DNA from: Dehalococcoidia bacterium
GTDB lineage: Bacteria; Chloroflexota; Dehalococcoidia; Lucifugimonadales; Lucifugimonadaceae
Length of the DNA: 64,000 nt
Reading direction: 5' to 3'
Assembly: GCA_965262065.1 (NCBI GenBank)
Contig: OZ253497.1
Location: 493,637 to 557,636, forward strand
Shown in pieces: positions 8,717 through 43,051 of this stretch. Every line of letters begins with the position of its first letter. The first letter of the stretch is position 1. Position numbers and translations under genes: made by a program. The notes under the pieces are model-generated. The model had not been told where the DNA came from. It ran no database searches and was given only the letters and a program-made list of their open reading frames with translations.

Positions 8717-8759
8717 TTCGGTCCAACCCTGCCAGCCGATCCGAAGACCGGCGCCGCTG

Positions 8760-10453: not shown

Positions 10454-10652
10454 TGAATACGCCCTCTATGCACTCGACTGCCGGTGTGATTCGTTCATAT
10501 TCTGCCGGTCCATCCCCTGAATTTCCGAAAGACGGAAGCACTCAGGCAAGGCATTTGACCATCAGCCGCGGCCGCGCAGATTCTACCCCGTCGGGGGCCT
10601 GCGGGCCATACATCGCCCTGAGAATCGCGCCCGCGTACGGGCGCCGTCGAAT

Positions 10653-11489
10653 TCAAGTTGGTTTCTGCGTCGCGGCTGCGAGGAAACGAACGAAATCGCC
10701 AGCGCGTTCAGGGGCCGATTCCGGAGGACCTGCGTTTATGGCGTCGATGAGCGCGCTGCCGACCACCGCCCCGTCTGCGTAGGAGGCGACCTCCTGCACG
10801 TGTTCCGGAGTGGATATGCCGAATCCCACCGCGACGGGGAGATCCGTGTGCCGCCGCACCATGTCCACGAGATCGCGCACCCTGCTCGACATCTCGGCGC
10901 GGGCGCCGGTCACGCCTAGCACCGAAACGCAGTAGACGAACCCGCCCGCGGATCGGCAGGCCGCCTTTACGCGCCCCTCAGTAGAGGTGAGGGCGACCAT
11001 GGGAACAACGCTCATTCCGGCGGCCGCGGCCGCGGCCGTCAGAGGTCCCGCCTCCTCGGCTGGCAGGTCGGCCGCTATCAGGCCGTTCGCCCCGGCCATG
11101 GCCGACATATCGCAGTACCGCTCGATGCCGAGGGACAACACGGGGTTGTAGTAGCCCATGAAAACCAGGGGGACTTCGACCCCCAGGTCGCGGGCAGCCC
11201 GCGCCGCTTCGATCGACGACCGGACCGTAGCGCCCGCCACCAACGCGTCGTGGCTCGACTTTTGGATCGTCGGTCCCTCGGCGAGTGGATCGCTGAACGG
11301 GACCCCCATCTCGATTACGTCGGCGCCGGCGTCGGCGATCGCCTTCACGATGGCCGGAGTAAGGTCGGATCGTGGATGACCGGCTGTCACGAACGGCACC
11401 AGCGCGATACGCCCTGCCTGTCGCGCGTTTTCAAACGCCTTTCGGATTGGATCGTTCAAATCCTTGCCTCGCTTGCAGTCACTCTTCAT
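10653..11489 (-). CDS. trpA: tryptophan synthase alpha chain
   Basis: 'LVPFVTAGHP', 'IEMGVPFSDPLAEGPTIQ', 'VGFGIS'. Confidence 0.93.
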   Translation of the reverse strand: MKSDCKRGKDLNDPIRKAFENARQAGRIALVPFVTAGHPRSDLTPAIVKAIADAGADVIEMGVPFSDPLAEGPTIQKSSHDALVAGATVRSSIEAARAARDLGVEVPLVFMGYYNPVLSLGIERYCDMSAMAGANGLIAADLPAEEAGPLTAAAAAAGMSVVPMVALTSTEGRVKAACRSAGGFVYCVSVLGVTGARAEMSSRVRDLVDMVRRHTDLPVAVGFGISTPEHVQEVASYADGAVVGSALIDAINAGPPESAPERAGDFVRFLAAATQKPT

Positions 11490-12206
11490 TCAGGTCACTT
11501 TGGCCAGAATCAACGCAGCCGTGTTGTGGAGGCCGTGGATGAAAATACACGGCCAGATAGATCTGGTTTTAAGGTACACCCACCCCAGGGCCAACCCCAG
11601 TATGAAAGTTGGTACCAGTGACGCAATATCGAGGTGGGCCAACGCAAAGAGGGCCGAACTCAGCACCACCGCCATCGCCATGCCGTACCGGTTCGCCAGC
11701 CCGGGCAGAGCAAACCCGCGAAAGAATATCTCCTCGGCAATCGGACCCCAGACCCCGACGAGTACGAACGCAATGAGAACGGAATCACCGGCCTCCTGAA
11801 GCAGATCGCGTGCAGTTTCGGGCGGGACCAGGAAGGACGCGTTGAGCAAGTCGACCAAGTACGTCCACACGAGAACCCCTGCGAGACCGGCAATCCAGGC
11901 GCCGACGGCGAAGAGATAGGGAAAATTTCCTTGCGGCCGCGTGAATCCCAGGGCCGACAGACCGACGCCGTACTTCACCACGGAGAACGTGACGGCAGCG
12001 ATCAGAAACATGCCTTCGAGCAACGCGAAGAGCACGATAGTCGATGGCACGCCGAGCAGTTCCCGGCCCTCGAGGGGCAGGGGCGAATCGTCTCCGCCGG
12101 CCGAGCCTGCGACCGCCAGCAACGCCAACACGGCGACCAGGATCGCGGCGCCGCCGAGCAGGGCTGCGAAAACTACGTCACGAGGATTCCACGGCGCCCG
12201 GATCAT
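11490..12206 (-). CDS. CPBP family intramembrane glutamic endopeptidase (CAAX protease-like)
   Basis: Multi-TM protein with 'EEIFFRG', 'FALAHL' and 'HGLHN' motifs. Confidence 0.8.
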   Translation of the reverse strand: MIRAPWNPRDVVFAALLGGAAILVAVLALLAVAGSAGGDDSPLPLEGRELLGVPSTIVLFALLEGMFLIAAVTFSVVKYGVGLSALGFTRPQGNFPYLFAVGAWIAGLAGVLVWTYLVDLLNASFLVPPETARDLLQEAGDSVLIAFVLVGVWGPIAEEIFFRGFALPGLANRYGMAMAVVLSSALFALAHLDIASLVPTFILGLALGWVYLKTRSIWPCIFIHGLHNTAALILAKVT

Positions 12207-12227
12207 GTGTAGGGGATGTTCGAGAGT

Positions 12228-12899
12228 TCAGGACCCCGACCACGAGACGTCGCCAAAAAGGTCGTCGGGGTGGTCCTTCGACGCGAACTCCGAATACTCG
12301 GCCCTGGATCGTCCTATGGTCGTGAAGTCCCCGTGGCCGGGCAGCACAACCGTCTCATCGTCCAGCGGGTACAGCCTGGAAGTAATCGATTCCACTAACT
12401 GCGTCAGCGCCGCAGGGCTCCTCGACTTGCCAGGCCCGCCCGGAAACAGGGTGTCGCCGGTGAACACGTGCTGTGTCCCGTCCGGGTCGTCGGGATCGGC
12501 CAGCAGATAACAGGTGGAACCGTCGGTATGACCCGGCGTGGCGATTGCGGAGAGCGATATTCCGCACACGCCTACGACGCTGCCGTCCGACACGTCGAGC
12601 GCTCCGCCGGCCGTCTTGCCCGCAATCGCCGGTGCGTCCTGCTCGCCTATGCCCACAGGCACTCGAAATACGTTAAGCACGTTTTCGAATCCCTGAAGGT
12701 GGTCCCAGTGGTTGTGGGTGATGAGCACGCCTCTGACGGTCGTCTGCCGGGCGGCCGTAATCAGTTCGTGCGGCTTGTCCGGAGTATCGATGATGATGCT
12801 GGACCGGTCCGCCCCGGCCGTGATCAGGTAGGCGTTGTTGGAGAAGCCGGAAACGAAACGTTCGATCTTCCAGCGGGCGCCTTCATAAACTATCGACAT
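12228..12899 (-). CDS. MBL-fold metallo-hydrolase (glyoxalase II-like)
   Basis: 'LITHNHWDHLQG' (HxHxDH), later 'TPGHTDGS' and 'GDTLF'. Confidence 0.85.
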   Translation of the reverse strand: MSIVYEGARWKIERFVSGFSNNAYLITAGADRSSIIIDTPDKPHELITAARQTTVRGVLITHNHWDHLQGFENVLNVFRVPVGIGEQDAPAIAGKTAGGALDVSDGSVVGVCGISLSAIATPGHTDGSTCYLLADPDDPDGTQHVFTGDTLFPGGPGKSRSPAALTQLVESITSRLYPLDDETVVLPGHGDFTTIGRSRAEYSEFASKDHPDDLFGDVSWSGS

Positions 12900-28911: not shown

Positions 28912-30054
28912 TTACTGGTCTATGACCGATCCGTCGGCGTGCAGCCTCGTATTGATCTCGCGGGGCGTGAAGGGAACCTTCTCTCGCGCGTCGGGCTTTA
29001 GCTCGACACCGATTCCCGGCTCGTCGGAGATAATCAGGTAGCCGTTGCCATCGTGCACCGGCGTGCCGGTGACCATGTCGCTCTTCGGCGGCACGTCCTC
29101 GCCCGTCGGGTACTCCTGCAGTGAGAAGTTCGGCACGGAGGCGGCAATCTGCAAGCAGGCCGCAGTGCTGACCGGACTGAGCGGGTTGTGCGGCACGACG
29201 CCCACGTGTCTGGCCTCTGCGGCTGCGGCGATCTTCTTCGTTGCAGAGATGCCGCCCACGATGCACACGTCAGGCCGGACGTACTGGACCGCGTTCCTGC
29301 TGAGCGCCATCTCGAAGTCCCAGAGCGAGGTGAACCGCTCACCGGTGGCTATGGGGATGTTTATCTTGTCGGCCACGTACGCCATCTCATCGATGTTGTC
29401 CGGCGTCACGGGGTCTTCGTAGAAATAGGGGTGGAACTTCTCGATGCCCAGGCCGAGCTGGACCGCTTCGGTGGGCGTGAGCCTCCGGTGTATCTCGATG
29501 CACAGATCGACGTCGCGGCCTACCGCCGCACGGTAGTCGGCCACTGTGTCGATGGCGTCTTCGATCTTCGCCACGTGGGTCTTGAAGTACGGCAGGTCGT
29601 GCGATTCGTCCAGGAACGGCGTCAGGTGCCCCACGGCAGTGAAACCCAATTCCTTTGCGGCCTTGACGCCGTTGACGAGCTTCTCGCGGGTGTTTCCGAA
29701 CACGTGGTAGTAGACACGCGCCTTGTCCCTGACCTTGCCGCCGAGCAATTGATGCACGGGGACGTCGAAGTGCTTGCCGGCTATATCCCAGAGCGCGATG
29801 TCGATCGCGCTGATAGCGCCCATAATGGCCGAGCCGCGGAAGTGGGATGAGCGGTACATGAACTGCCAGTGGTGCTCGATCCGGAGAGGGTCCTTCCCCA
29901 TGAGGTAGCGGCCGTATTTTTCGATTGCGACGGCAGACGATTCGAGGTAGCCCCACGCGCCCGACTCACCCAGGCCGGTAATGCCTGCGTCCGTCTCGAT
30001 CTCTACCAGCAGGTACCTGTCCAGAAAGATCGGTTCAACTTTAGTTATCTTCAA
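28912..30054 (-). CDS. enolase-superfamily dehydratase, D-galactonate dehydratase (DgoD)-like, paralogue 2
   Basis: TTG start with AGGAGAG upstream. Motifs: 'MKITKVEP..LLVEIETDAGITGLGES', 'ALWDIAGK', 'IEIHRRL', 'FYEDP', 'IATGERF', 'YVRPD'. Confidence 0.88.
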   Translation of the reverse strand: MKITKVEPIFLDRYLLVEIETDAGITGLGESGAWGYLESSAVAIEKYGRYLMGKDPLRIEHHWQFMYRSSHFRGSAIMGAISAIDIALWDIAGKHFDVPVHQLLGGKVRDKARVYYHVFGNTREKLVNGVKAAKELGFTAVGHLTPFLDESHDLPYFKTHVAKIEDAIDTVADYRAAVGRDVDLCIEIHRRLTPTEAVQLGLGIEKFHPYFYEDPVTPDNIDEMAYVADKINIPIATGERFTSLWDFEMALSRNAVQYVRPDVCIVGGISATKKIAAAAEARHVGVVPHNPLSPVSTAACLQIAASVPNFSLQEYPTGEDVPPKSDMVTGTPVHDGNGYLIISDEPGIGVELKPDAREKVPFTPREINTRLHADGSVIDQ

Positions 30055-30156
30055 TTCGTTTCTCTCCTGAATCGACTCGCGCTCATCCGTGATCGCCTCC
30101 CGGCGCGTCAGCGAATGTTATCCCGCCGCGCCCGTCATTGAAACCGTCCCTTTACG

Positions 30157-31704
30157 TCAGCCCCGGTCCCTGATCACGGAGTGGGCAGCGTTATGCCCGG
30201 GCGCGCCCGACACCTCCCCGCCGGGGTGCATTCCGGAGCCGCACATGTACAGACCCGGCAGCGGAGTCCGGTACGGCGCGCAGCCGGGCAGGGAGCGGTT
30301 GGCGAACATCTGGACCGGCACAATGTCGAGGTGGCGGATGTTGCCGTCGGTCATGCCGACCCGCTCGCCGATGTCCGCCGGCGTGAACAGGTCCCACTGT
30401 TCGATGCAGTCGCGTATGTCGGGCAGATAACTCTCGAGTTGGTCGAGGAGGGCATTGCCGACATCCTGTTTAATCTCTGCCCATGAGCCGGCGCGGGGAT
30501 GAGCCGGCTCGAAGGTAACCCAGATCGACATCACGTGCTTGCCGGGAGGGGCGAGGGTCGGATCGAAGACGCTTGGGATCTGCAGTTGCATGATCGGGTA
30601 GCGAGTCGGAACCCCATTCATCGCGTCGCGCCAACTCGCTTCGAGATAGTCGGCCGAAGGCATGATGCGGACCATGGCGGCCACGGTTTCGGCGTCGCCG
30701 GCGCGAAGGTACTTTGAAAAGTCGGGCAAACAGCTTAGGGCAGCGTGCAGTTTCAAAGACGCCGAGCGGGTCGAAAGGCCCTGCACTTTTTTGGCAAACC
30801 CCTGGAACCCGGCAGGCAGCGAACACGCGTCGATCAGCTTTGTAAACGTCGACTTGGGGTCGGCGTTCGAGACGACGATTTCCGCCCCTATCTCTTCGCC
30901 CGTCTCCAGCCGCACACCGACGGCGCGCCCGTCACGGACAATGATCGAGCCAACGGGAGCGCTCGTCCGGACCTCCACCCCCGCCTCCTGCGCGGCATTT
31001 GCCATCGCCTGCGTCACTCCGCCCATTCCGCCGCGGACGATCCCCAGATCCTCGTCATGCGTCAGCAGGCTCATCTTGAAGTAGGCTTGAGCCAGCGCGC
31101 TGCCCGGCTCCGATATCGCCCCGTAGTCGCCCGAGCCGATGGCCGCCGCGACGATCCGTTGGTCTTCAAAATAGTCCTCGGCCATCGTCCGGACAGGGAT
31201 ATTCAGCAACCGTTCCCAGATCGCCTCGTACTTTGTTCCGGCCACGTCGTTCGTAATTTCATCAAACGTAGGCGGCTCCGAGAGGAAGTACCGTTGCAAA
31301 AGCCGCGCCGCCGCCTCCCAAAACTCCATCCATCTCGGCCAGGCGCTCCGGTCGCGAGGGGAAATGAGCGCTATCTCTTCGTCGGTCCGTTCGTGATCGT
31401 GCCAAAATCTCAGGGTGTCGCCGTCGGGATACACGATCAGGGCCGCCGGGTCGAGTGGGTAGATGTGCAGGCCGTGGCGGCGCAGTTCCATGTCGTCGAT
31501 GACACGGCGCTGCAGCATGTGGCAGACGTATGCGCAGGTCCCGATTCGATAACCTGGGAACAGTTCGTCGGTGACCGCCCCGCCGCCAACCCGTTCCGCG
31601 CGTTCCAGCACGGTCACGTCGATACCGGCCCGCGCGAGATAATATGCGGCGACCAGCCCGTTGTGGCCTGCGCCTACTATGATGCAACTATCTGACTGCG
31701 CCAT
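30157..31704 (-). CDS. FAD-dependent oxidoreductase (phytoene desaturase-related family)
   Basis: N-terminal dinucleotide fold 'IIVGAGHNGLVAAYYLARAGIDVTVLE'; 515 aa. Confidence 0.8.
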   Translation of the reverse strand: MAQSDSCIIVGAGHNGLVAAYYLARAGIDVTVLERAERVGGGAVTDELFPGYRIGTCAYVCHMLQRRVIDDMELRRHGLHIYPLDPAALIVYPDGDTLRFWHDHERTDEEIALISPRDRSAWPRWMEFWEAAARLLQRYFLSEPPTFDEITNDVAGTKYEAIWERLLNIPVRTMAEDYFEDQRIVAAAIGSGDYGAISEPGSALAQAYFKMSLLTHDEDLGIVRGGMGGVTQAMANAAQEAGVEVRTSAPVGSIIVRDGRAVGVRLETGEEIGAEIVVSNADPKSTFTKLIDACSLPAGFQGFAKKVQGLSTRSASLKLHAALSCLPDFSKYLRAGDAETVAAMVRIMPSADYLEASWRDAMNGVPTRYPIMQLQIPSVFDPTLAPPGKHVMSIWVTFEPAHPRAGSWAEIKQDVGNALLDQLESYLPDIRDCIEQWDLFTPADIGERVGMTDGNIRHLDIVPVQMFANRSLPGCAPYRTPLPGLYMCGSGMHPGGEVSGAPGHNAAHSVIRDRG

Positions 31705-31977
31705 ACTCGAACCCGCCTTGCGGGCCGTCGAAGTCCCGCGCCGGTCTTGTGGGGGAAACAGGGAGCAACACGTTGGTTGACCGACGCAGTCCTGAAAGAT
31801 CGAACTGCGTCGGCGATTCTCTTTGCTCCGCAGACCCGGCGTGGAATACTACTACCCCGCGGAGCGCCCGCCTCGCCAATTGCCGAGATATTCGGGCCCG
31901 GGACCAACTATCGACTAGAGGACGGCCGAACGCGTAGAGTCGGCCACGCATATCGCCGCGAATTCGGAGGAAAAAAG

Positions 31978-33108
31978 ATGAACGGACCAGACATATACGA
32001 CCGGCTCGGCGTCACAAAGGTGATCAACGCCCGCAGCTGGGTAACCGCCCTCGGCGGATCGATCATGCGGCCGGAAGTATTTGCGGCCATGGAAGAGGCG
32101 GGGCGGCACTTCGTCGACATGGACGAGTTGATGGCTGCCGGCGGCAAGGTCGTGGCGCGGGCGTGCGGCGCTGAGGCGGGCATGGTCTGCGCCGGAGCGG
32201 CGGCCGGAAACCTGCTCATGGCGGCCGCCGCCATCACCGGGACCGACAGGTCCAAGGTCGACCGCCTCCCCGATACGACCGGCATGAAGAACGAAATCGT
32301 CATCTTCAAGTCGCAACGAAATTCATACGACCGGACGTTCGAGACCGCGGGCGGCAAGCTCGTGGAGATAGGCATGCCGAAGACGGTGACGGCATACCAG
32401 CTTGAAGCCGCCATCGGAGACGCGACGGCAGGAGTGGTCTACACGCTTGCGCCGTTCCTTCCGCGCCCGCTCTCCCTCGAAGAGACCATAGAGATCGCCC
32501 ACGCATGTGGCGCGCCCGTCCTGGTCGACGCCTCGGCGGAGGTGCCGCCGGCCGACAATCTGACAAAACCGATGAGAGCCGGCGCCGACATGGTGACCTA
32601 CTCAGGCGGCAAGGGCATCTGCGGCCCGCAAAACTCCGGTCTGCTGGCCGGCCGGGCAGATTTGATTGAAGCGGCGTTCATGAACTACCTGCCCGCAGGC
32701 GCGCCGCGCGCCGGCATCGCGCGCCCGGCGAAGGTGTCCAAGGAGACCATCGTCGGCCTGGTCACGGCGATCGAGCTGTTCCTCGACTCCGATCACGAGT
32801 CGGTGTGGGCAGGCTGGCGGCAGAAGTGCGAGCACGTCGTCGAAAAGGTCAGAGGAATCCCCGGCCTGCGGGTGGTGATAGAGGACAACGAGAACCGGCA
32901 GGGGCCGCAGCCGGTGATTTACCTCGAACCCGAGTGGAGCGGTCCGCCCGCGGACGAAATACGCAGGCGTCTCGCCGAGGGCAACCCACCGATAATGATC
33001 GGCTCAGGCGGTTACGGGGACGAGCTGAACGTGGTGATGGTCAACGTGCGGCCTGGCGAAGAGAAGATCATCGCCGATCGCCTGCACGCAATCCTCACCT
33101 CCGAGTGA
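31978..33108 (+). CDS. SelA-fold PLP-dependent enzyme (DgaE-like), copy 1
   Basis: ATG 31978 preceded by GGAGG. Motifs: 'VINARSWVTALGGSIMRPEV' and PLP-Lys context 'YSGGKGICGPQNSGLLAG'. At 376 aa it lacks the N-terminal extension of true SelA. Confidence 0.75.
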   Translation: MNGPDIYDRLGVTKVINARSWVTALGGSIMRPEVFAAMEEAGRHFVDMDELMAAGGKVVARACGAEAGMVCAGAAAGNLLMAAAAITGTDRSKVDRLPDTTGMKNEIVIFKSQRNSYDRTFETAGGKLVEIGMPKTVTAYQLEAAIGDATAGVVYTLAPFLPRPLSLEETIEIAHACGAPVLVDASAEVPPADNLTKPMRAGADMVTYSGGKGICGPQNSGLLAGRADLIEAAFMNYLPAGAPRAGIARPAKVSKETIVGLVTAIELFLDSDHESVWAGWRQKCEHVVEKVRGIPGLRVVIEDNENRQGPQPVIYLEPEWSGPPADEIRRRLAEGNPPIMIGSGGYGDELNVVMVNVRPGEEKIIADRLHAILTSE

Positions 33109-33124
33109 CCGGGACGCGATCGCG

Positions 33125-34270
33125 ATGCCGATGCCGCTCCGAACCCCCGAACCGTACGCCAGGCTGGGCGTAAAGCCGGTCATCAACGCCCAAAGCTGGG
33201 TGACGGCGCTCGGCGGCAGCCTCATGCGGCCCGAAGTATTGAGCGCCATGAACGAGGCGGCGGCGTGCTTCGTCGACATGGTCGAACTCAACCGGGCGGC
33301 GGGCAAGGTAGTGGCGCGGGCATGCGGGGCCGAATCGGGCATGGTCACCGCGGGAGCGTCGGCGGCCGGGACCATCGCCGTCGCGGCCTGTATGACCGGC
33401 GTCGATCGAGCAAGGGCGGAGCACCTGCCCGACCCGACGGGAATGAAGAACGAGGTGGTCGTCTTCTGGGGAGAGCGCAACCGCTACGACATGTCGTTCG
33501 AGTTGCCGGGGGCGCGGATCGTCGAATGGGGCGTGCCGGGCGCCGGGGCGGCCTACCAGCTCGACGCTGCGATCACCGAACGCACCTGCGCCGTCGCGGC
33601 CGTATTCCAGCCGCTGTTGAAACGCGGCCTGCCGGTGAGCGAAATGTGCGAGGTCGCCCACGCCCGCAACGTGCCGGTGATCGTGGACGCCGCCGCCGAG
33701 GTCCCGCCGCTGGCCAACCTCACGCGCTTTATTCAGGATGGCGCCGACCTGGCGTTCTTTTCCGGCGGCAAGGGCATCGGGGGGCCGCAGAACGCCGGCC
33801 TGCTAGCCGGCAGCAGCGACCTGATGGAGGCTGCGTACGTCAACGCGCTCAACCTTGACGCGCCGCGGGCTGGAGTGGCTCGGGGGATGAAGGCGTCCAA
33901 GGAGTCGATCGTGGGAATGGTCACGGCGCTCGAACTCCTGGTCGAAACGGGGGAGGACGCCCTGTACGGAGGATGGATGGCCAAGGCGCGGCATATTCAC
34001 GGCCGCCTGGAGCACGTCGAAGGGCTGCGAGTCGTCATCGAAGAGACGGGGCCCGACCGTCACGGGCCGCAGCCGGTGGTCTACTTCGAACCTGGGTGGC
34101 GCGGGCCCTCGCCAGCCGAGATCCGCCAACGCCTGCTCGACGGCGACCCGCCAATACACGTCGGCATGGGCCACTACGCCGATGAGATCAACCTCGTCAT
34201 GGTGTGCCTCCAAGACGGCGAAGAAGAGATCGTCGCCGAGCGGTTGTTGGAGATTCTCGACACGGCCTAA
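33125..34270 (+). CDS. SelA-fold PLP-dependent enzyme (DgaE-like), copy 2
   Basis: 'VINAQSWVTALGGSLMRPEV', 'FSGGKGIGGPQNAGLLAG'. It is a clear paralogue of the upstream gene. Confidence 0.75.
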   Translation: MPMPLRTPEPYARLGVKPVINAQSWVTALGGSLMRPEVLSAMNEAAACFVDMVELNRAAGKVVARACGAESGMVTAGASAAGTIAVAACMTGVDRARAEHLPDPTGMKNEVVVFWGERNRYDMSFELPGARIVEWGVPGAGAAYQLDAAITERTCAVAAVFQPLLKRGLPVSEMCEVAHARNVPVIVDAAAEVPPLANLTRFIQDGADLAFFSGGKGIGGPQNAGLLAGSSDLMEAAYVNALNLDAPRAGVARGMKASKESIVGMVTALELLVETGEDALYGGWMAKARHIHGRLEHVEGLRVVIEETGPDRHGPQPVVYFEPGWRGPSPAEIRQRLLDGDPPIHVGMGHYADEINLVMVCLQDGEEEIVAERLLEILDTA

Positions 34271-34299
34271 GCTCGGGTTCGTGCGGTCGACCCGCTGCC

Positions 34300-34380
34300 C
34301 TAATCTCCCCGCGGGGGTAAGACGCCGGCCTTGTGGAAATCCCGTTCGTCTTCGACTGTCCTGAGGGACCGGGGCGCGTG
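34300..34380 (-). pseudogene. orphan copy of the 3' end of the enolase gene at 35869..37050 (direct-repeat copy A)
   Basis: 70/81 nt are identical by hand alignment to 35869-35949. It encodes HAPRSLRTVEDERDFHKAGVLPPRGD* versus HAPRPLRTVEDERNFHKAGVSPPRGD* at the true gene end. Confidence 0.75.
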
Positions 34381-34547
34381 AAACTGCCACAAGGTCGCTT
34401 GTACATGTGCCATACGGCGCAGGCGCTGAATAAAGCTCGGGCACCGTCCAGCATCGGGTACTTTATATTGAGTTCGGCGACTATCCTTCGCGGGTGGCCC
34501 GAAAGAGGACGCAGGGCAACGCGCGAACATCAAGACCCCTCTAAATC

Positions 34548-35570
34548 ATGGCGCTCGAAATACATCAGTTGGAACCAGAGCAAATTGACCAGGCAGGAAG
34601 AGTCCTGGTGCACGAGACGGATATCGACAAATGGTCGCAATCCGCCCGCGTGATCAATACGTGGCGTGCCTCTCACGCCGGTCCGCTGAATACATTTAGG
34701 ATGAATCTTCGCAGGCGAGTCCGAGGTCGCGACTTCGTCGCGCAGCGCCTCAAGCGTTTGCCCTCGATCGTTTCGAAAGTGGAAAGACTACCGCGGATCC
34801 GTTTGTCGCAAATGCAAGACATTGGCGGTTGCCGTGCCGTGTTACGCACATCGGACCATGCATATGACCTGGCCCTGGATTTCGCATCCAGCAGGATCCG
34901 GCACAAGCTGATTCGGTACAAGGACTATATTGAGAATCCGAGGCGATCAGGTTACCGCAGTCTGCACATGGTGTATGCCTACGACAGTGATCGATCCATG
35001 CAATGGAATGGCCTAAACATCGAAATTCAAATCCGTTCCCTTCTCCAACACCAATGGGCGACAGCCGTCGAAACTGTCGGCACGTTTACGCGGAACGACC
35101 TCAAGTCAAACCACGGCAATGCGATCTGGCTACGCTTCTTCGCGCTTATGAGTACTGTGATCGCACAGACTGAAGGAATGCCCGGCATCCCCAACACTCC
35201 AACAAGCCGAAGCAAACTCCTGCGCGAGATCAGGGAATGCGACCAACTACTTGGAATCTCTGAACAATTGGCTGCGTTTCAAGACCTTACGCCCATGCTC
35301 CCGGGTCTTTCGACGAGAAACAAGTGGATCGGTCTGGAACTGGACCTGGCGAACCAAACGGTGATTGGGTCCGTCTTTAATCCAGGGGACCTGGAGGCTG
35401 CAACCAACTGGTATGTGGAGAGGGAAGTTGAGAGCCGGGGGGATTCGCAAGTAGAGGTAGTTTTGGTCTCAACTGCATCGTTGTCAGCGCTCAGAAGGGC
35501 CTATCCGAACTACCTCGCGGACTTGGGCGATTTCAGGCGCCTGGTTCAGGAGACGATTGCGATTCCATGA
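34548..35570 (+). CDS. RelA/SpoT-domain protein (small alarmone synthetase / toxSAS-like nucleotide pyrophosphokinase) with ~140-aa C-terminal domain
   Basis: 'RLKRLPSIVSKVER', 'MQDIGGCRAVL', 'ENPRRSGYRSLHMVYAY', 'IEIQIRSLLQHQWATAVE'. This is the synthetase-domain motif set. There is no HD hydrolase domain. Confidence 0.8.
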   Translation: MALEIHQLEPEQIDQAGRVLVHETDIDKWSQSARVINTWRASHAGPLNTFRMNLRRRVRGRDFVAQRLKRLPSIVSKVERLPRIRLSQMQDIGGCRAVLRTSDHAYDLALDFASSRIRHKLIRYKDYIENPRRSGYRSLHMVYAYDSDRSMQWNGLNIEIQIRSLLQHQWATAVETVGTFTRNDLKSNHGNAIWLRFFALMSTVIAQTEGMPGIPNTPTSRSKLLREIRECDQLLGISEQLAAFQDLTPMLPGLSTRNKWIGLELDLANQTVIGSVFNPGDLEAATNWYVEREVESRGDSQVEVVLVSTASLSALRRAYPNYLADLGDFRRLVQETIAIP

Positions 35571-35703
35571 CGGCCATTTCGCGGAACCGCTTCTCCCGTC
35601 TCACGATGGCTCTGCGATCGCGGGCAAGGACTCTTTGCATAACCCGTTCGAATCTCTGGGCCGGCGTTTCGACCGGTCGAGCGTTCTTCCTCTTGCCAGC
35701 CAT
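35533..35703 (-). CDS. possible 56-aa basic helical protein, convergent with and overlapping the RelA/SpoT gene end
   Basis: Hand translation (below the track cut-off): MAGKRKNARPVETPAQRFERVMQRVLARDRRAIVRREKRFREMAVMESQSSPEPGA*. ATG at 35701-35703, TGA at 35533-35535. No clear RBS was seen. Confidence 0.25.
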   Translation of the reverse strand: MAGKRKNARPVETPAQRFERVMQRVLARDRRAIVRREKRFREMAVMESQSSPEPGA

Positions 35704-35868
35704 AATTTATGTCCCCTGAGCCGACACGGCCCACTGTAATCGAATCACTACACACTGGACAATTGTCGCATATGCCTCAGGTGGTCAAGCAAGAGTAGAA
35801 AGGCAGCCGCCAGCCCGATAGACGCGGCATGAATGTCGCAATGGAACTTGATCCGGCTACTCGCGGCC

Positions 35869-37050
35869 CTAGTCCCCGCGCGGGGGTGAGACGCCTGCTT
35901 TGTGGAAGTTTCGTTCGTCTTCGACGGTCCTGAGGGGCCGGGGCGCGTGTCGGTCGTATGTGTACTCTTTCAGAGCCGCCTCGTTGATTTCGATGCCGAT
36001 CCCCGGCTCGGTGGGCAACTCGACGTAGCCCTGGTCCGGCACGAGCGGCTTCACCATCAGCTTGTTGCACACGTCCTGCAGGCCGTGGGGGTACTCGTAC
36101 ATCAGGAAGTTCGGTATGACGGCGGACGCCTGCACGCCGGCCGCGAACGAGATCGCCGCGCTATTGGCGCCGTGGGGCGAAATGCCCATGTCGTACGCCT
36201 CGGCCATGGCGGCGATCTGCACGATCTCCAGTATCCCGCCCGTGTTCGAGATGTCTGGGTTGAGGTAGTCGGCCGCACGGCGCTCGAATACCTCGACGAA
36301 GCCGCGCCGCCCGTAGATCGCCTCGCCGATCGTTACCGGAATGTTGAGGGCGTTCTTGACCTCGGCGATGCCCCGGATGTTCTCCGGCGGACACGGCTCC
36401 TCGAACCAGTAGGGCCGGTACTTCTCGATCATGCGGCCGACCATGATCGCCTCGATGGGCGATAGACGCCGGTGGACCTCGATGAGTATCTCGACGCGCG
36501 GTCCGACCGCCTCTCGCACCGCTCCGACCTTGGCGGCCGCCAGTTCAAGGTCGGCGTGATCCACGAACGAACGCCACGGCCCGGGGAACGGGTCGAACTT
36601 CAGGGCGTCGTACCCCAGTTTCACTGACTTCAGCGCGCTGTTTGCGCACTCCTCCGGCGTGTCGCCCGCCGCTCCGCCGCCGTAGACCCTGAGCGCCGGG
36701 CGAACGGCGCCTCCCAGCAGGTTGTAGACCGGCTGGTCGAGGGCCTTGCCGGTGATGTCCCACATGGCGATCTCCAACCCGCTCACTGCGCTGTAGACGT
36801 CCATGGAGCCGCGCTTGAGAAACATGTCCTCGTAGGCCCAGTGACGGAAGTGGCCGATCTGCATCGGATCGCGGCCGATGAGGTAACGCTTCATCTCGTC
36901 GATATGCGCCGTGATCGCCGTGTCACGGTCGAGTTGCGTGTACGCCTCGCCCCAGCCGACGATTCCGTTGTCGGTGGTTATCTTGACGAACACCCAGTTC
37001 TTGGTCTGTGGCGGATGCACTATGAAGGTTTCGATGTCCTGGATTTTCAC
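35869..37050 (-). CDS. enolase-superfamily dehydratase, paralogue 3
   Basis: GTG 37048-37050 is preceded by AGGAG (7-nt spacer) and gives 'VKIQDIETFIVHPP'. Motifs: 'AMWDITGK', 'IEVHRRL', 'WFEEP', 'VTIGEAI', 'YLNPD'. The track ORF extends to 37224; ATG 37122 is an alternative start. Confidence 0.88.
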   Translation of the reverse strand: MKIQDIETFIVHPPQTKNWVFVKITTDNGIVGWGEAYTQLDRDTAITAHIDEMKRYLIGRDPMQIGHFRHWAYEDMFLKRGSMDVYSAVSGLEIAMWDITGKALDQPVYNLLGGAVRPALRVYGGGAAGDTPEECANSALKSVKLGYDALKFDPFPGPWRSFVDHADLELAAAKVGAVREAVGPRVEILIEVHRRLSPIEAIMVGRMIEKYRPYWFEEPCPPENIRGIAEVKNALNIPVTIGEAIYGRRGFVEVFERRAADYLNPDISNTGGILEIVQIAAMAEAYDMGISPHGANSAAISFAAGVQASAVIPNFLMYEYPHGLQDVCNKLMVKPLVPDQGYVELPTEPGIGIEINEAALKEYTYDRHAPRPLRTVEDERNFHKAGVSPPRGD

Positions 37051-37239
37051 TTCGCCGCTCCTCTTGTCTGCGAGGTCATGATGGCCCGGCCACTTAGTCG
37101 GGCCGTGAGTTGCTGGGAACATGTTACGGCCGACCCGCCCGGCGTAGAGCATGGCCGGGGGTAATCGCGCGATACTGTCCGTTTGAATGTGCACGCAGCG
37201 CGGCATGACAGCCGGACGCCGCAAAATCAGGGATAGGCA

Positions 37240-38190
37240 ATGATCTACCGGACCCTTGGCCGAACCGGCCAGAAAGTATCGCTCCTAAGCTACGGCACGG
37301 GCGGGCCGAGCGGGTTTGGCGCGCGCACCGGCGTCGACCGTTCGGGCCGTCGCCGCCTGATCCGCCGGGCGCTGGATATCGGCGTGAATCTCATCGACAC
37401 CGCAGAGGGTTACGGGAACTCCGAGGAATGGCTGGGCGATGCCTTACAGGGCACGACCCGCGATTCGTACCTCATCGCCACCAAGTGGAGTCCTCCGTGC
37501 ACGTTTCGCGTTAACGACGAAAAAAAGTTCACAGGGCTGGCCGATTCGTTCGAACGCAGTCTCAAGCGGTTGCGCACCGGCTATATCGACATCATGCAGT
37601 TCCACGGGGTGACCATGGCTACGTACAGCGCCGTCGTGGACCGCTATTACCCGATTCTGAAGGCGCTGCAGGAACAGGGAAAGCTCCGGTTTATCGGCGC
37701 GACGTTCCAGTTGAAGGCCGAGCCGCGGCACGAGACCGCAGTCCTCGCCCTGCGCAACGATCCCGGGCTCTGGGACACGATCATGCTCAAGTACGGCTTC
37801 CTGAACCAATGGGCGGCCAAAGAGGTGTTCCCGCTGGCCATCGAACACGGAGTGGGCATACTCAACATGGCGGCCGTGCGGCTGTCGCTGTCCCGTCCGC
37901 AACGCTCACGCGAGGTCGTCGCACGGTGGAAGGAAGAGGGCTTGATCGCGCCCGACGATTTGCCGGACGATGGACCTTTCGACTGGCTATTGGGCGAGGA
38001 CGTGGACTCGGTCATCTCCGCCGGCTACAAGTTCGGCGCGGACCACGCGGCTGTTTCGACAGTGATCACGGGCACATCGAGCATCGAGCATCTCGAGGCC
38101 AACGCAAGATCGCTCGAAAAACCCGCGCTGCCGAGCCATAACCACGAGCGTCTTGTCCGGCTGTTCGAGGATTCCGCCGAGCCGGATTGA
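37240..38190 (+). CDS. aldo/keto reductase
   Basis: 'MIYRTLGRTGQKVSLLSYGTG', 'IDTAEGYGNSEEWLG', 'IDIMQFH'. Confidence 0.88.
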   Translation: MIYRTLGRTGQKVSLLSYGTGGPSGFGARTGVDRSGRRRLIRRALDIGVNLIDTAEGYGNSEEWLGDALQGTTRDSYLIATKWSPPCTFRVNDEKKFTGLADSFERSLKRLRTGYIDIMQFHGVTMATYSAVVDRYYPILKALQEQGKLRFIGATFQLKAEPRHETAVLALRNDPGLWDTIMLKYGFLNQWAAKEVFPLAIEHGVGILNMAAVRLSLSRPQRSREVVARWKEEGLIAPDDLPDDGPFDWLLGEDVDSVISAGYKFGADHAAVSTVITGTSSIEHLEANARSLEKPALPSHNHERLVRLFEDSAEPD

Positions 38191-38887: not shown

Positions 38888-38910
38888 GGTATGGCGAGTG
38901 TCGTCCACCG

Positions 38911-39777
38911 CTAGGCTATGTGGCTCATGGCCTGGTCTACGATGTCCATGCCGGCACGCTCCGACCAGGCCGCCAGGATCTGTTTCGTAATCGGCCCGGG
39001 CGGGTCGTTCCGCAGCGGGCTGTCGTTGATCTTGCCGACCGGCAGCGCGCAGTAGCTCGTGGTCGTCAGAAACGCATCGTACGGCGTGAGGGGCTCTTCG
39101 GCGGTCGGAATATCGAGGTCGTCGGCCAGTTCGAGCACGGTCATGCGACTGACACCCGCAAGCACGTTGCGCGCCGGGGCGGTGCGGACCACTCCATTGG
39201 TGACCACGAAGAAGTTGCCGCCAGTGTTCTCGGAGAGGTTCCCGTCGACATCGAGGAGCACGGCGTAGGCCTCCGGGTCGACCAGCTTCGCCTCGATTTC
39301 GGCCATCACCAGGTTCATGCGGCTAATCGTCTTGAGCCTGGCGTCGAGGGCCTGTACAGGGTCTCTGCGAGTGGTCGGAATTACAACGTGCGCGCCCTCG
39401 TCGTAGAATCTGGCGTACGAAGTGAAAGGTATCGGCCTCATCCTGATCACAACCGTCGCCTGTTCCGGCTCCAGCACCGAATAGACCGCGCCGCGCTAGA
39501 TCATCTGCGTTACGGAATAGTCGCCGTTCGGCGCCCGCATCCGGTCGTTGCGGCGGGCCAGCTCTTCCGTGACTTCCTGCATCTCGTCGATCGACATGCC
39601 GGGATCGATGCGGACCATGTGAAGGGTCCTGTACAGCCGCTCCAGGTGTTCCCTCAGGCGGAATACCTTGCCACCGAACGTGCGCTCCGTGTCCATGCCT
39701 GCAACGCGATAGCAACGGAAAACTGCGGTACTCGTGGGTAGTTGACCTGAATTCGGCCGAAACCGGATAGGCAACAA
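38911..39777 (-). pseudogene. class IV (fold type IV) aminotransferase pseudogene, paralogue of 42069..42980
   Basis: Track ORFs 38911..39477 and 39496..39777 are colinear with the intact copy but are split by an in-frame TAG ('TQMI*' versus 'TQMISRGSG'). The fragment lacks the first ~38 codons and the 'YNADE' block ('PYDAFLTTT' versus 'PYDAYNADEAFLTTT'). Confidence 0.85.
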
Positions 39778-39792
39778 GTAGGGGGTTAGGTG

Positions 39793-41400
39793 CTAACTCG
39801 GCGTGTATGTGTCCGGGGGAGTTAGATCATGAAATATGGAATACTGCGAAATAAGGACGTCTTCTCCGCTGACGGTGCCCCACACCAAGAGTGTGTAGAC
39901 CCCCTTGCCGTGCTCGCCCAGCACGTCCCATAAGTCGGCAGCGATAGAGAATTCTGTGCCCCTGGCCGTCCACTCCAGCGCGGTGTTCCACGGGACCTCG
40001 ATTGTCCGCGGCTCCAGCCCCAGGTGCTCAGATTGAACCCACTCCCAAAGCAGGCGGGCCTCGTCGTATGAGGAAGGGTGTTCAGCGTCCGCGGGAACGT
40101 CGTAGGGATTGAGGGATGGGGTGTACGTATAGGTAAATTGGTGGTCTTTGTAAAATTGATTCGCCGTGCGGATCGGCGGTCTCAGCGCAACCACCAAAAG
40201 CCCATTGTCGTAGGAGTAGGCTCTCGCGACCTGTCCCGCGGTAAGCCTGTGCGGCGGCGGATCGAAAGTGAGCAGCACACCGAGGTCGAGTTCGTCGACA
40301 AAAACCGCGCCGTTCTTCGTCGACCCAGACATACTAAGAACACCTCTGTTAATGACCGGTAGTTGAGCGTATTCAACGTAGTCGCCCTCGAAGTGCTGGA
40401 CAACTTGGAGGGAGTAGTCGTCCCATGCAAGTCCGATGTTGACCCGCTTGCGCCACGGATCCAGGATGTTGTCCCGGTGGCCCGGGCTTCCCATCAACCT
40501 CTCCATCGCCAGACTTATTTCCGGCTCGACGCTACCAATTACACGAAATCCTTCCGAAGCTTTGACGCAATAGGGAAGGCCGCTTAGGTTCTCCCCATTG
40601 GACTGAAAGCCCCCGGCAAGGCTGTATCTCATGTAGGGTTTCAGGCCGTCCATGCCCCAATGAGACCCGAAGCAATTCTCCACCTCCGCCTCAGCGTGCA
40701 GTTGAGCGGCTACGTTGTCGCCGAGAACAACGGGGTCCAGACCAACTTTCACACGCTCGTCATTGATGAGTTCGAGCATGTATAGCTTTTCCTCGATGTG
40801 ACGTAGTGGGGGTGGGGGAGCGGGCGAAGGCGTTGATACCACCGATGGCAACAGGGGGGCGAGCGTTGGAGGAGGCGTCGATACAGGAGCAAGCGTGGGC
40901 AAAGGGGCCAGTGTCGGCGGAGGCGTCGGCACAGGAGCAAGCGTGGGCAGAGGCGCCAGTGTCGGAGGAGGCGTCGGCAAAGGAACAAGCGTGGGCAGAG
41001 GCACAAGTGTCGGCGGCGGCGTCGATACAGCAGTCGGCACGGGCAGGGGGGCGAGAGTTGGGGGAGGCGTCGGCACAGCAGTCGGCGCGGGCAGGGGCGC
41101 CAGTGTCGGACGAGGGGTTGGCAGGGCAGCCAGCGTGGGCAGGGGCGCCAGTGTCGGAGGAGGCGTCGGCAGGGCAGCCAGCGTGGGCAGGGGCGCCAGT
41201 GTCGGAGGAGGCGTCGGCAGAGCAGCCAGCGTGGGCAAGGGCGCCAGCGTCGGCGGCTCAGCTTCCCGCGATGACTCTTCTACACGCAACAGGTCAGATA
41301 TGCGTCGAGGTAGCACGTCCTCAACATAGGCATAGTAAGCCACGCTCACCAGGACACCGACGACAAAGCCGAGTACCAACCTCTTTGTGGCCCGACTCAT
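39793..41400 (-). CDS. membrane-anchored secreted protein: Pro-rich repeat stalk + CAP/SCP (PR-1-like) domain + unassigned C-terminal domain
   Basis: N-terminal TM 'LVLGFVVGVLVSVAYYAYV', about 9 x 16-aa 'PPTLAPLPTLAALPTP' repeats, then 'LELINDERVKVGLDPVVLGDNVAAQLHAEA..CFGSHWG..GENLSG', typical of CAP/YkwD-like domains. Confidence 0.75.
   Translation of the reverse strand: MSRATKRLVLGFVVGVLVSVAYYAYVEDVLPRRISDLLRVEESSREAEPPTLAPLPTLAALPTPPPTLAPLPTLAALPTPPPTLAPLPTLAALPTPRPTLAPLPAPTAVPTPPPTLAPLPVPTAVSTPPPTLVPLPTLVPLPTPPPTLAPLPTLAPVPTPPPTLAPLPTLAPVSTPPPTLAPLLPSVVSTPSPAPPPPLRHIEEKLYMLELINDERVKVGLDPVVLGDNVAAQLHAEAEVENCFGSHWGMDGLKPYMRYSLAGGFQSNGENLSGLPYCVKASEGFRVIGSVEPEISLAMERLMGSPGHRDNILDPWRKRVNIGLAWDDYSLQVVQHFEGDYVEYAQLPVINRGVLSMSGSTKNGAVFVDELDLGVLLTFDPPPHRLTAGQVARAYSYDNGLLVVALRPPIRTANQFYKDHQFTYTYTPSLNPYDVPADAEHPSSYDEARLLWEWVQSEHLGLEPRTIEVPWNTALEWTARGTEFSIAADLWDVLGEHGKGVYTLLVWGTVSGEDVLISQYSIFHDLTPPDTYTPS
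40825..41256 (-). repeat. 48-nt periodic coding tandem repeat (16-aa PPTLAPLPTLAALPTP x ~9)
   Basis: Residues 49-192 of the CAP-domain protein. The first three units are identical at protein level and later units diverge progressively. Confidence 0.9.
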
Positions 41401-41606
41401 TCAATCCACCTCACCTCGTCCATTATATCGCGGGCTTCCAAGTAAACGCAGAATCCCTAGAAATCCACGGGCTGCGGTCAAGGCCCGCCCCCACTGACAA
41501 GTTGGAGATAGTCAGTGGGACGGCGGACGGGCAGTCTACACGCCCCCGGAATTAAACACTTTAGGTAGGAGTCTCACAATTCGTAGAACCGGGCAGCGCG
41601 GGGATT

Positions 41607-41951
41607 CTACCAGACCTTCCACCAGGACCGCGGCGACTGCGGCGGAAATGAGCCCTGCCGAAACGCGTCGATCAATGCTCCCTCGCGGTCTTGAGCCAGT
41701 CGCAATTGTTCTCGCAGCACGTCGGTCAGCCCTTCGAGTGCGCGGATGCGCTCGCGGGCCGCGGCGATCTCCCCGTCAGCCACCGGCGCGGCGAGTCCGG
41801 GGTTGTCCAGGATTTCGAGCTTCCCGCGTCCGCCATTTGTCGAACTGCCCGTCCGCAACTCACCGGTTCGGATGCGCCGGTCAACAGTCCTAAGTGAGAC
41901 ACCAAGCCACCGCGCAGCGTCGACCTTGGTCAAGGAAATCGTACTCGCCAT
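41607..41951 (-). CDS. excisionase/MerR-like helix-turn-helix DNA-binding protein with coiled-coil tail
   Basis: 'LTKVDAARWLGVSLRTVDRRIRTGEL' is typical of excisionase-family HTH domains; 114 aa. Confidence 0.6.
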   Translation of the reverse strand: MASTISLTKVDAARWLGVSLRTVDRRIRTGELRTGSSTNGGRGKLEILDNPGLAAPVADGEIAAARERIRALEGLTDVLREQLRLAQDREGALIDAFRQGSFPPQSPRSWWKVW

Positions 41952-42068
41952 GTGCCCCCTTGCGCCTAACGAGATAGCCGGGAATGTTTGTAGTCCAAAA
42001 CCGGCCTGATCAGATGGAAGTCGAGAGAGGCGAGGCGATAAACGCGAAATGACGTTTATCGTAGATCG

Positions 42069-42980
42069 CTAACTCACGTGGCTCATCGCCTGGTCTACGA
42101 TGTCCATGCCGGCACGCTCCGACCAAGCCGCCAAAATCTGCTTCGTTACCGGTCCGGGTGTGTCGGCCCGCAACGGGTTGCCATTGATCTTGCACACCGG
42201 CAACGCGCAGTAGCTCGTGGTCGTCAGAAACGCCTCGTCGGCGTTGTAGGCGTCATACGGTGTGAGGGTCTCCTCCGCCGTCGGAATATCGAGGTCCCGC
42301 GCCAGTTCCAGCACGGTTTGGCGGCTGATTCCGGCCAGAACGTTTCGCGCCGGGGCCGTCCGAATCACGCCGTCGGTCACCACGAAAAAGTTACCGCCGG
42401 TGTTCTCGGACAGGTTTCCATCGACATCCAGAAGCACAGCGTAGGCGGCCGGGTCGATCTGCTTCGCCTCGATCTCGGCCATCACCAGATTCATACGGCT
42501 TATCGTCTTCAGCCTGGCGTCAAGGGCCTGCGGAGGGTCTCTGCGCGTAGTTGGGAAGACGACGTGCGCGCCCGTGTCGTACAACTTGGCGTACGAAGCG
42601 AAAACGATCGGCGTCATCTTGACCACCACGGTCGCCCGCTCCGGCTCCAGCAAAGATGTCCCCGACCCGCGCGAGATCATCTGCGTTACCCAATAGTCGT
42701 CGTTCGGTTGGCGCATCCGGTCGTTGCGGCGCGCCAACTCCTCGGTGATCGACTGCAGTTCCTCTATCGATATGCCCGGATCGATGCGCACCATGTGAAG
42801 GGCCTTGTACAGCCGCTCCAGGTGTTCCCTCAACCGGAACACCTTGCCCGCGAATGTCCGCTCTGTGTCGAAAACCGCATCGCCGACCGAAAGGGCGCGG
42901 TCCAACACCGATATCTTCGCCTGAGAGGTCGGCACGAACTCGCCGTTCACGTATTGGATCAACTCTTGCATTGGAATCAC
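42069..42980 (-). CDS. class IV aminotransferase (branched-chain/D-amino-acid aminotransferase family), intact copy
   Basis: 303 aa. Motifs: 'ERTFAGKVFRLREHLERL', 'LKTISRMNLVMAE', 'ADEAFLTTT'. Confidence 0.85.
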   Translation of the reverse strand: MIPMQELIQYVNGEFVPTSQAKISVLDRALSVGDAVFDTERTFAGKVFRLREHLERLYKALHMVRIDPGISIEELQSITEELARRNDRMRQPNDDYWVTQMISRGSGTSLLEPERATVVVKMTPIVFASYAKLYDTGAHVVFPTTRRDPPQALDARLKTISRMNLVMAEIEAKQIDPAAYAVLLDVDGNLSENTGGNFFVVTDGVIRTAPARNVLAGISRQTVLELARDLDIPTAEETLTPYDAYNADEAFLTTTSYCALPVCKINGNPLRADTPGPVTKQILAAWSERAGMDIVDQAMSHVS

Positions 42981-43051
42981 CCCGCTGTACTAGTGCGTAC
43001 GGATTAAGCGGATTTTAGGCCATTCGGCAGCCCGGGGCGCAAGGCCGGCAA

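Follow-up and report, generated by a model that had tools for sequence, protein, structure and literature searches.

Results and discussion

The locus and the identity of its protein

The window analyzed here is a 64,000-nt stretch of the genome of a Dehalococcoidia bacterium (contig OZ253497.1, positions 493,637 to 557,636 of the forward strand, assembly GCA_965262065.1). Inside a sugar-acid/metabolic cluster it carries an insert of two genes, about 1.3-1.6 kb in all, of which one encodes a 340-residue protein with a RelA_SpoT synthetase domain and the other, on the opposite strand, a basic protein of 56 residues (Table 1). By sequence comparison, the larger protein is homologous end to end to CapRelSJ46, a small alarmone synthetase of the toxic kind (toxSAS) in which toxin and antitoxin are fused, and we read it as a divergent member of the known fused CapRel family, i.e. 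as a single-chain toxin-antitoxin, with a probability of roughly 0.8.

An earlier note on this DNA, made from the letters alone, had described a synthetase-only protein with all its motifs intact and had put forward a toxSAS or fused CapRel-like identity. Every motif quoted there is present in the 340-residue open reading frame (ORF), namely R67-L-K69-R70, D91-IGGC-R96, G135-Y136-RSL-H140 and E159-IQIRS...Q167-HQWA171, and a Pfam scan of the protein returned RelA_SpoT alone, with HD hydrolase, TGS and ACT domains not found. The proposed identity was likewise upheld, with CapRelSJ46 coming first by sequence, by profile, by fold and through the PADLOC model PDC-S33. In a sequence search of the PDB, CapRelSJ46 (7ZTB/9ERV) was matched at an expectation value (E) of 8e-36 and small alarmone synthetases (SAS) of the RelQ/RelP type followed at 2e-12 or weaker, a lead of more than 20 orders of magnitude over the other solved structures; a second alignment stretch to CapRelSJ46 spans the C-terminal ...AYPNY... 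segment. BLASTP aligned residues 12-337 with residues 19-370 of CapRelSJ46 (28% identity, E 5e-44), hhalign of a profile of 103 relatives covered 326 columns and residues 14-371 of the 373 in CapRelSJ46 (probability 100%, E 1.5e-43), and a tblastn search of phage genomes aligned 97% of the query with CapRel of Salmonella phage SJ46.

The defence-finder check that the earlier note had suggested was run with PADLOC, giving PDC-S33 as the sole match and essentially at full length (E 7.7e-105, 349 bits, profile positions 1-342 of 349). CapRelSJ46 also matches this model at full length (E 7e-87, 290 bits), as do the transposon-borne relatives considered below; PDC-S33 therefore covers the one experimentally characterized fused CapRel. 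Our literature search found no paper mentioning PDC-S33, and the result ties an anonymous PADLOC candidate to a protein that has been solved and characterized.

The presence of a RelA_SpoT domain, together with synteny of the gene in the four closest genomes, would also suit a housekeeping SAS (RelQ/RelP/RelV-like) acting in the stringent response, and the earlier note had named a universally present, syntenic housekeeping clade as the finding that would speak against its proposal. The scores obtained were 62.5 bits against a cut-off of 320 for the YjbM/RelQ equivalog NF053588 and 36.6 bits against a cut-off of 499 for the spoT_relA model, and synteny is limited to the nearest relatives. In addition, the protein carries an extra CapRel antitoxin domain of ~130 residues, codon usage in its gene is compositionally foreign, the corresponding locus of the more distant relative L169 (related loci are numbered L001 onward) lacks the gene, and the family is patchy over bacteria and archaea and is found on transposons. 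We consider the housekeeping interpretation effectively refuted.

Probable antitoxin half, key residues and predicted structure

The C-terminal domain, which the earlier note had left unassigned, aligns with the antitoxin/sensor half of CapRelSJ46 and comprises anchor helices, a pseudo-zinc-finger domain (pZFD) and C-terminal helices, the latter including the segment RRAYPNYLADLGDF at residues 316-329. As judged by alignment and by the AF2 model, these ~130 residues are probably an antitoxin/sensor module of the CapRelSJ46 type. The model had a predicted local distance difference test (pLDDT) score of 88.7 and a predicted template modelling score of 0.86, with pLDDT 81-94 in the C-terminal part, where flanking helices were placed at residues 221-245 and 312-338. 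In CapRelSJ46, the pZFD is built from three antiparallel strands, the last two being separated by a helix (PMC9712102), a topology which the predicted beta-beta-alpha-beta module of our protein matches. Foldseek returned 7ZTB_B as the best PDB match of the model (E 9.7e-21, TM 0.69, 349 columns); the root-mean-square deviation of 9.9 Å to this open crystal form means that the two halves are oriented differently and shows nothing more. A fold search of BFVD for a closed-state CapRel model returned no CapRel entry.

Recognizing that substitutions in CapRelSJ46 have been informative, with Y155A abolishing defence and others at the mapped residues leading to constitutive toxicity (Zhang et al. 2022, PMC9712102), we compared these positions in the two proteins. 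The adenine-coordinating arginines R79 and R116 of CapRelSJ46 correspond to R67 and R96 in our protein, the G-loop tyrosine Y155 to Y136, the interface scaffold residues A77, V338, L339 and A351 to A65, V305, L306 and A318, and Y352 and Y355 of the YXXY motif, whose neutralizing role in CapRel and toxSAS has been described (PMC9712102, PMC11782079), to Y319 and Y322. The sole mapped position that is not identical is the scaffold residue A341, replaced by S308, and serine is the family majority at this position (121 of 154). In the alignment of 154 family sequences used for these counts, R96, Y136, E159 and Q161 are invariant and R67 is found in 152; Y319 and Y322 occur in 147 and 146, respectively, among them all 16 of the archaeal sequences examined, and the AYPNY motif in about 146. 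Within the family, conservation is lowest in the anchor and pZFD regions (majority fraction 0.54-0.57 vs. 0.77 in the core), a variability consistent with a sensor role.

Table 1. Coordinates of the CapRel-type gene, its putative functional parts and the features next to it (positions in the window)
Feature	Position	Strand	Remarks
Putative fused CapRel-type toxSAS gene	34548..35570	+	ATG start; 340 codons and a stop
toxSYNTH (RelA_SpoT) catalytic core, aa 66-172	34743..35063	+	Pfam PF04607, E 6.5e-19
Key residues within the core	34953-34955 (Y136 codon)		donor-adenine arginines R67, R96; G-loop S134-G135-Y136; E159/Q161
Probable antitoxin/sensor half, aa 211-340	35178..35567	+	aligned to CapRelSJ46 residues 247-371
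Predicted pseudo-zinc-finger	35322-35474	+	strands 259-266, 271-277, 302-309, helix 282-295 (AF2 model)
Putative YXXY neutralization motif, Y319-P-N-Y322	35502..35513	+	aligns with Y352/Y355 of CapRelSJ46
TATATTGAG, candidate -10-like element only	34464..34472	+	unchanged in L001 and L002; 76 nt upstream of the CapRel ATG
Basic 56-aa protein gene	35533..35703	-	convergent to CapRel; the 3' ends overlap by 38 nt
Spacer, enolase-family stop to small-gene start	35704..35868	.	165 nt, presumed 5' region of the small gene
Left repeat copy, orphan enolase-family 3' remnant	34290..34380	-	last ~24 codons, stop and ~10 nt; adjoins SelA-like gene
Right repeat copy	35859..35949	-	functional 3' end of the enolase-family gene 35869..37050/37224 (MR_MLE_N/MR_MLE_C)

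Composition and divergence of the gene

The CapRel-type gene is compositionally foreign to its surroundings, as the earlier note had stated, with a GC content of 0.543 and a third-position GC content (GC3) of 0.622 vs. 0.615-0.68 and 0.78-0.87, respectively, in six flanking genes. The closest genomes that carry the gene are metagenome-assembled genomes (MAGs) of Dehalococcoidia; it is syntenic in L001 (84% amino acid identity), L002 (81%) and L182 (75%) and non-syntenic in L003-L007 (52-62%). Compared with the three syntenic orthologues, the gene is under purifying selection, the ratio of nonsynonymous to synonymous divergence (pN/pS) being 0.26-0.30, and its pN is 7-12 times that of the adjoining enolase gene. 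Against L182, for example, the CapRel proteins are 75% identical, compared to 97.7% for the enolase and 94% for the aldo-keto reductase.

We noticed that the first 60 codons (34548-34727) had a pS of only 0.08 against L001, compared to 0.28 for the whole gene, with 34581-34640 being 100% identical; this low synonymous divergence was seen against L001 and not against L002 or L182, and the stretch may reflect recent recombination or a 5' element under constraint. The candidate -10-like element TATATTGAG upstream of the gene was not picked up by a sigma-70 consensus scan.

Proposed mechanism and the choice of substrate

Based on the biochemistry of CapRelSJ46 and FaRel2, we postulate that the N-terminal toxSYNTH domain would be a pyrophosphokinase with ATP as the pyrophosphate donor. 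In the resting cell, the C-terminal half, comprising two anchor regions, the pZFD and the YXXY motif, would fold against the catalytic sheet such that YXXY is lodged between R67 and R96, blocking the ATP donor site and rendering the protein harmless. Upon infection, a phage protein may bind the variable pZFD and keep it off the active site; in characterized relatives, the role of trigger falls to the major capsid protein or to a small protein of the phage. The enzyme so freed would pyrophosphorylate the 3'-CCA ends of tRNA, arresting translation and leading to abortive infection, with no phage produced by the infected cell. Autoinhibition, tRNA as substrate, a phage protein as trigger and the defence phenotype are all, by this analogy, what we would expect of the protein.

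The toxSYNTH fold and the donor-site residues are common to all toxSAS and do not fix the acceptor by themselves, which leaves some room for a nucleotide-targeting toxSAS (FaRel/Tas1/GRel-like) that would exhaust ATP or GTP while producing (pp)pApp or (p)ppGpp. We hold this to be quite improbable for the following reasons: 1) the tRNA pyrophosphokinase CapRelSJ46 is by far the nearest characterized relative; 2) no Tas1 or FaRel chain appeared in the PDB sequence search at E <= 1; 3) blocking of the donor site by YXXY/pZFD is described as the neutralization mode and hallmark of translation (tRNA)-targeting toxSAS, metabolism-targeting ones being neutralized otherwise (PMC11782079); 4) no S-adenosylhomocysteine (SAH) hydrolase, Tis1-like or YejK-like gene is adjacent. 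Because this mode of blocking has been described for translation-targeting toxSAS, tRNA is the favored substrate.

Several observations weigh against our reading of the protein as a fused CapRel acting alone in defence. Identity to the sole characterized relatives is just 28%, the acceptor, whether tRNA or adenine nucleotides, cannot be read from the sequence with certainty, and the neighbors are metabolic rather than other defence genes. Furthermore, a small gene is conserved next to it, such that the system may not be strictly single-component, and carriage of relatives on transposons in other phyla would equally fit a selfish addiction role. The last two points are taken up below.

The convergent small gene

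The earlier note had found no antitoxin gene on the same strand, and that statement stands for the strand concerned; on the opposite strand, however, lies the conserved 56-residue gene. It is intact and of equal length in L001 (10989-11156), L002 (7977-8144) and L182 (6106-6273), and a profile built from it located the gene, again convergent at that position, in the non-syntenic L003-L007 as well as in the independent metagenome loci L082/L083 (6013-6204; E 3e-15). Iterating the profile added L098, L106, L123/124, L149 and L156; in L017, L021, L054 and L119, the small gene has another position in the locus, no more than about 2.5 kb away from CapRel. Over the 44 codons that do not overlap CapRel, substitutions fall mostly in third positions (e.g. 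6/6/20) and pN/pS is 0.27-0.65, and the small gene is therefore protein-coding. Its GC3 of 0.63 resembles that of CapRel and not that of the flanks. AF2 predicted a single long helix at residues 14-49 (pLDDT 80). The protein matched no Pfam, NCBIfam or PADLOC family, and a database search yielded at least 643 short relatives annotated 'hypothetical', with the consensus ETPFERFKRLT..VVSVPRAEIQKRE. Compared with L001 in 60-nt windows, the spacer in front of the gene has an identity of 93-98%, above the level of the adjacent CapRel coding sequence, and it gave no Rfam, promoter-like or terminator-like match.

These features raise the possibility of a two-component system, in which the 56-residue protein would be a trans-acting regulator or second antitoxin, or its mRNA would be antisense to the 3' end of CapRel, a scheme compatible with the fused-CapRel explanation. 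In line with this, the convergent pair with overlapping 3' ends has been kept in all three syntenic relatives, the arrangement recurs in non-syntenic Chloroflexota where CapRel is 52-62% identical (L003-L007, L082/L083), and it is seen again, with a 4-nt overlap, in the soil-metagenome loci L162 and L174 where CapRel is only ~41% identical; purifying selection on the small gene and the GC3 that it shares with CapRel and not with the flanks point in the same direction. On the other hand, the small gene was detectable in only 19 of the 160 CapRel-family loci surveyed (many of these contigs being too short to judge context), CapRelSJ46 works alone (PMC9712102), and the small protein is without a PADLOC, Pfam or NCBIfam match. 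Furthermore, the small gene also occurs in CapRel-free IS1595 units (L164, L176, L178-181) and adjoins unrelated ORFs in L165-168, and it is perhaps part of the transposon backbone rather than a partner of the toxin. Taken together, we view the two-component scheme as possible but rather unlikely; the small protein may act for either the toxin or the transposon.

In the non-syntenic Chloroflexota loci, the CapRel and small-gene pair stands alone between housekeeping genes. The neighbors are tRNA-related in L004 (7166-8662), L005 (8170-9858) and L082 (2127-4958 and 6254-6913), comprising GltX-type, GlnS-type, LysS plus SerS and peptidyl-tRNA hydrolase genes; three of six pair loci lie beside aminoacyl-tRNA synthetase genes, which we informally judged to be above chance for a tRNA-targeting toxin. 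In L003 (12231-16661), the pair adjoins Cas9/Cas1 and a putative Cas2.

Insertion site

The flanking genes comprise two MR_MLE enolase-family genes, a UxuA-like gene, an FAD oxidase, two SelA-like aminotransferases and an aldo-keto reductase, and a scan with defence models matched none of them save for a generic flavoprotein match. The gene had been described as island-borne in the earlier note; what we found is a two-gene insert within a metabolic cluster and not a defence island. Around the locus, no tRNA gene, integrase or transposase was found, and scans with Rfam and for sigma-70 promoters, terminators and tRNAs gave no match.

The contig L169 shares the AlkZ-like, Aminotran_4, aldo-keto reductase and enolase genes (the last 87.5% identical in amino acids), and homology ends at the enolase stop codon. 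Beyond it (7188-12624) lie a 67-residue gene, a 302-residue gene, an N6_N4 methyltransferase and a ResIII helicase, a cargo that looks restriction-modification-like, and the locus contains neither CapRel nor the small gene. As L169 carries different cargo, the spot downstream of the enolase gene is variable, with defence-type cargo both times. An empty site was also sought in more distant relatives, only to find the next enolase homologues (<=64% identity: L170, L172) in unrelated and uninformative contexts.

An imperfect direct repeat of 91 nt (34290-34380 vs. 35859-35949, 86% identical) brackets the insert in the window. The left copy translates to ...APRSLRTVEDERDFHKAGVLPPRGD, compared to ...APRPLRTVEDERNFHKAGVSPPRGD for the live enolase-family gene, and is missing from L001 and L002. 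We propose that the CapRel gene and the convergent small gene arrived jointly as a two-gene cassette.

IS1595-family transposons carrying CapRel relatives

Among the sampled contexts of the small-protein family, we noticed a recurrent IS1595-family transposase (Zn_ribbon_IS1595 plus DDE_Tnp_IS1595). In L162/163, the order is transposase, a 107-residue ORF, DUF2335, small gene and then convergent CapRel; in L174/175, it is transposase, ORFs of 88 and 134 residues, small gene and then convergent CapRel. L164, L176/177 and L178-181 have the transposase and the small gene without CapRel, and in L165-168 the small gene lies opposite unrelated ORFs. Terminal inverted repeats enclose the transposase, small gene, CapRel and other ORFs in L162 (2092-5256) and L174 (1645-4774); the repeats are 23 nt long with 96% identity in L162 and 28 nt long with 89% identity in L174, share the core GGTAAtAATATACTTGAC, and are accompanied by 8-bp target duplications (CTATTATT in L162, TTCGAGAC in L174). 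Complete IS1595 units with CapRel cargo, inverted repeats and 8-bp target duplications were also found in L043, L098, L106, L119, L123/124, L015 and L017, usually with the small gene included. The genes flanking L165 are those of L162, with inserts that differ and have the small gene alone in common. Over the 160 loci, a transposase gene lies within 3 kb in 19 and both repeats are present in 8, with at least one of transposase, repeats and small gene in 34. Our literature search found no description of CapRel on IS1595 or other transposons.

In the window and its Chloroflexota relatives, tblastn found no IS1595 transposase, and neither a pattern search for the inverted repeat (<=3 mismatches) nor an nhmmer profile of 25 repeat ends gave a match in the window or in L001-L007/L082. 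The window insert has no 8-bp target duplication, and its 91-nt duplication differs from the 8-bp one typical of IS1595. A by-eye likeness to IS1595 ends at 34463-34483 and 35780-35802 was dropped when the pattern and nhmmer searches turned up empty.

Complete IS1595 units that enclose a CapRel homologue, with terminal inverted repeats and 8-bp target duplications, and the 19 loci with a nearby transposase could mean that the gene is a selfish addiction or stabilization module of a mobile element, kept as transposon cargo and not for host defence. We deem this improbable, given that a toxin fused to its antitoxin leaves no labile antitoxin by which post-segregational killing could be enforced, that the window, L001-L007 and L082 lack transposase and inverted repeat and yet have an intact gene under purifying selection, and that characterized family members protect against phages (PMC9712102).

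A reading that joins these strands is that a sizeable minority of fused CapRel genes would be permanently paired, in a two-gene cassette, with a convergent gene that overlaps at the 3' end and encodes a basic single-helix protein of 45-70 residues, and travel as IS1595 cargo, that the small protein or its antisense transcript would regulate the toxic cargo in trans, that IS1595 would spread CapRel, and that the Dehalococcoidia copy would be a domesticated remnant. We regard this combined scheme as speculative and on the whole unlikely; if true, IS1595 elements would be a previously unrecognized vehicle of CapRel-type immunity across bacterial and archaeal phyla.

In L178 (1353-1892), as well as in L179-L181, the small gene follows a 179-residue protein with a sub-threshold match to HEPN_RiboL-PSP (E 7.7e-4), a hint that other cargo of a toxin-like kind may be accompanied by the small gene too. 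A HEPN-like reading of the 133-residue ORF opposite the small gene in L165 (RDTTMH) was abandoned for want of a Pfam or PADLOC match.

Comparison with known systems

Returning to the fused-CapRel reading, the closest system is CapRelSJ46, which forms with CapRelEbc and CapRelKp the fused anti-phage toxSAS. Like our protein (340 residues), CapRelSJ46 (373 residues) is a single polypeptide with the toxSYNTH donor-site arginines, G-loop tyrosine, anchors, pZFD and AYPNY with its scaffold residues; in both, the pZFD is the least conserved region, and both are covered by the same PADLOC model. In contrast to CapRelSJ46, with its enterobacterial prophage, our gene resides on the chromosome of an uncultured Dehalococcoidia, and the protein has shorter loops (no 73-86 insertion) and a shorter pZFD. 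SJ46 has no convergent 56-residue gene, its downstream gene being lxc. PDC-S33, the label that an automated defence search would give our protein, stands in PADLOC as a single-gene 'phage defence candidate', and the small partner gene is nevertheless present in some of the family loci (19/160).

The bipartite toxSAS, i.e. PhRel/ATphRel, unfused CapRel/ATcapRel and FaRel2/ATfaRel2, resemble our protein in having a toxSYNTH toxin, a pZFD-type antitoxin and YXXY, which in these systems blocks the donor ATP site of a toxin that targets tRNA (PMC11782079). Their components are separate proteins encoded in a co-directional operon, whereas ours are fused, and the small neighbor of our gene differs from their antitoxins in being convergent, a single basic helix (as predicted) and devoid of YXXY. 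PANGU type I (Pag1A, YejK-like, with Pag1B/GRel) likewise combines a toxSAS effector, a C-terminal regulatory domain and a second gene. Pag1B, however, makes pppGpp as a tetramer, lacks a tRNA-binding pocket and is activated by a nucleoid protein, and it shares a co-directional operon with its large YejK-like partner, compared to a 56-residue opposite-strand helix in the window. We rejected PANGU type I since no YejK-like gene is nearby and the effector in the window is CapRel-like with YXXY, the PANGU effector lacking the CapRel features. IS1595 elements with passengers enclose relatives of both window genes; the window has a 91-nt duplication of the 3' end of the target gene instead.

Distribution and meaning

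The distribution cited for the subfamily covers six bacterial phyla, with Chloroflexota and archaea not listed. Our data extend the CapRel immunity sensor to uncultured Dehalococcoidia and, via related loci, to many lineages of archaea. Catalytic and autoinhibitory residues being intact across them, the CapRel mechanism is probably universal, as far as the sequences can tell. What goes beyond prior knowledge is only the partner gene convergent with CapRel and the transport of both genes by IS1595 elements in other phyla; these are leads and not results, bearing on how a single-gene defence moves and on a possible hidden second component. For annotation, we suggest the name CapRel-family fused toxin-antitoxin rather than 'GTP pyrophosphokinase'.

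Full-length CapRel-family genes with R/R/Y and AYPNY intact were seen in the archaeal MAG loci L031, L034, L039, L040, L042, L047, L048, L052, L058, L063, L064, L067, L072, L074, L078 and L080. The hosts include Micrarchaeota, Woesearchaeota, Nanoarchaeota, Aenigmatarchaeota, Thermoplasmata, Methanosarcinales and Methanoperedens.

Wider surroundings of the locus

The cluster on either side of the insert (28912-34270 and 35869-38190) includes tandem paralogues, namely the two MR_MLE genes and the two SelA-like genes (31747-33108 and 33125-34270, ~65% nucleotide identity), and looks like a sugar-acid or amino-sugar catabolic locus. Further downstream (38909-43027), about 2.3 kb of the window is absent from L001 and L002. 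This region holds a 535-residue ORF (39793-41400, minus strand) with long Pro/Thr/Leu/Ala repeats and no Pfam match, positioned between two Aminotran_4 segments of ~0.8-0.9 kb (38909-39693 and 42055-43027) that both match one place in L001; in the gene calls of L182, Aminotran_4 follows directly after the aldo-keto reductase.

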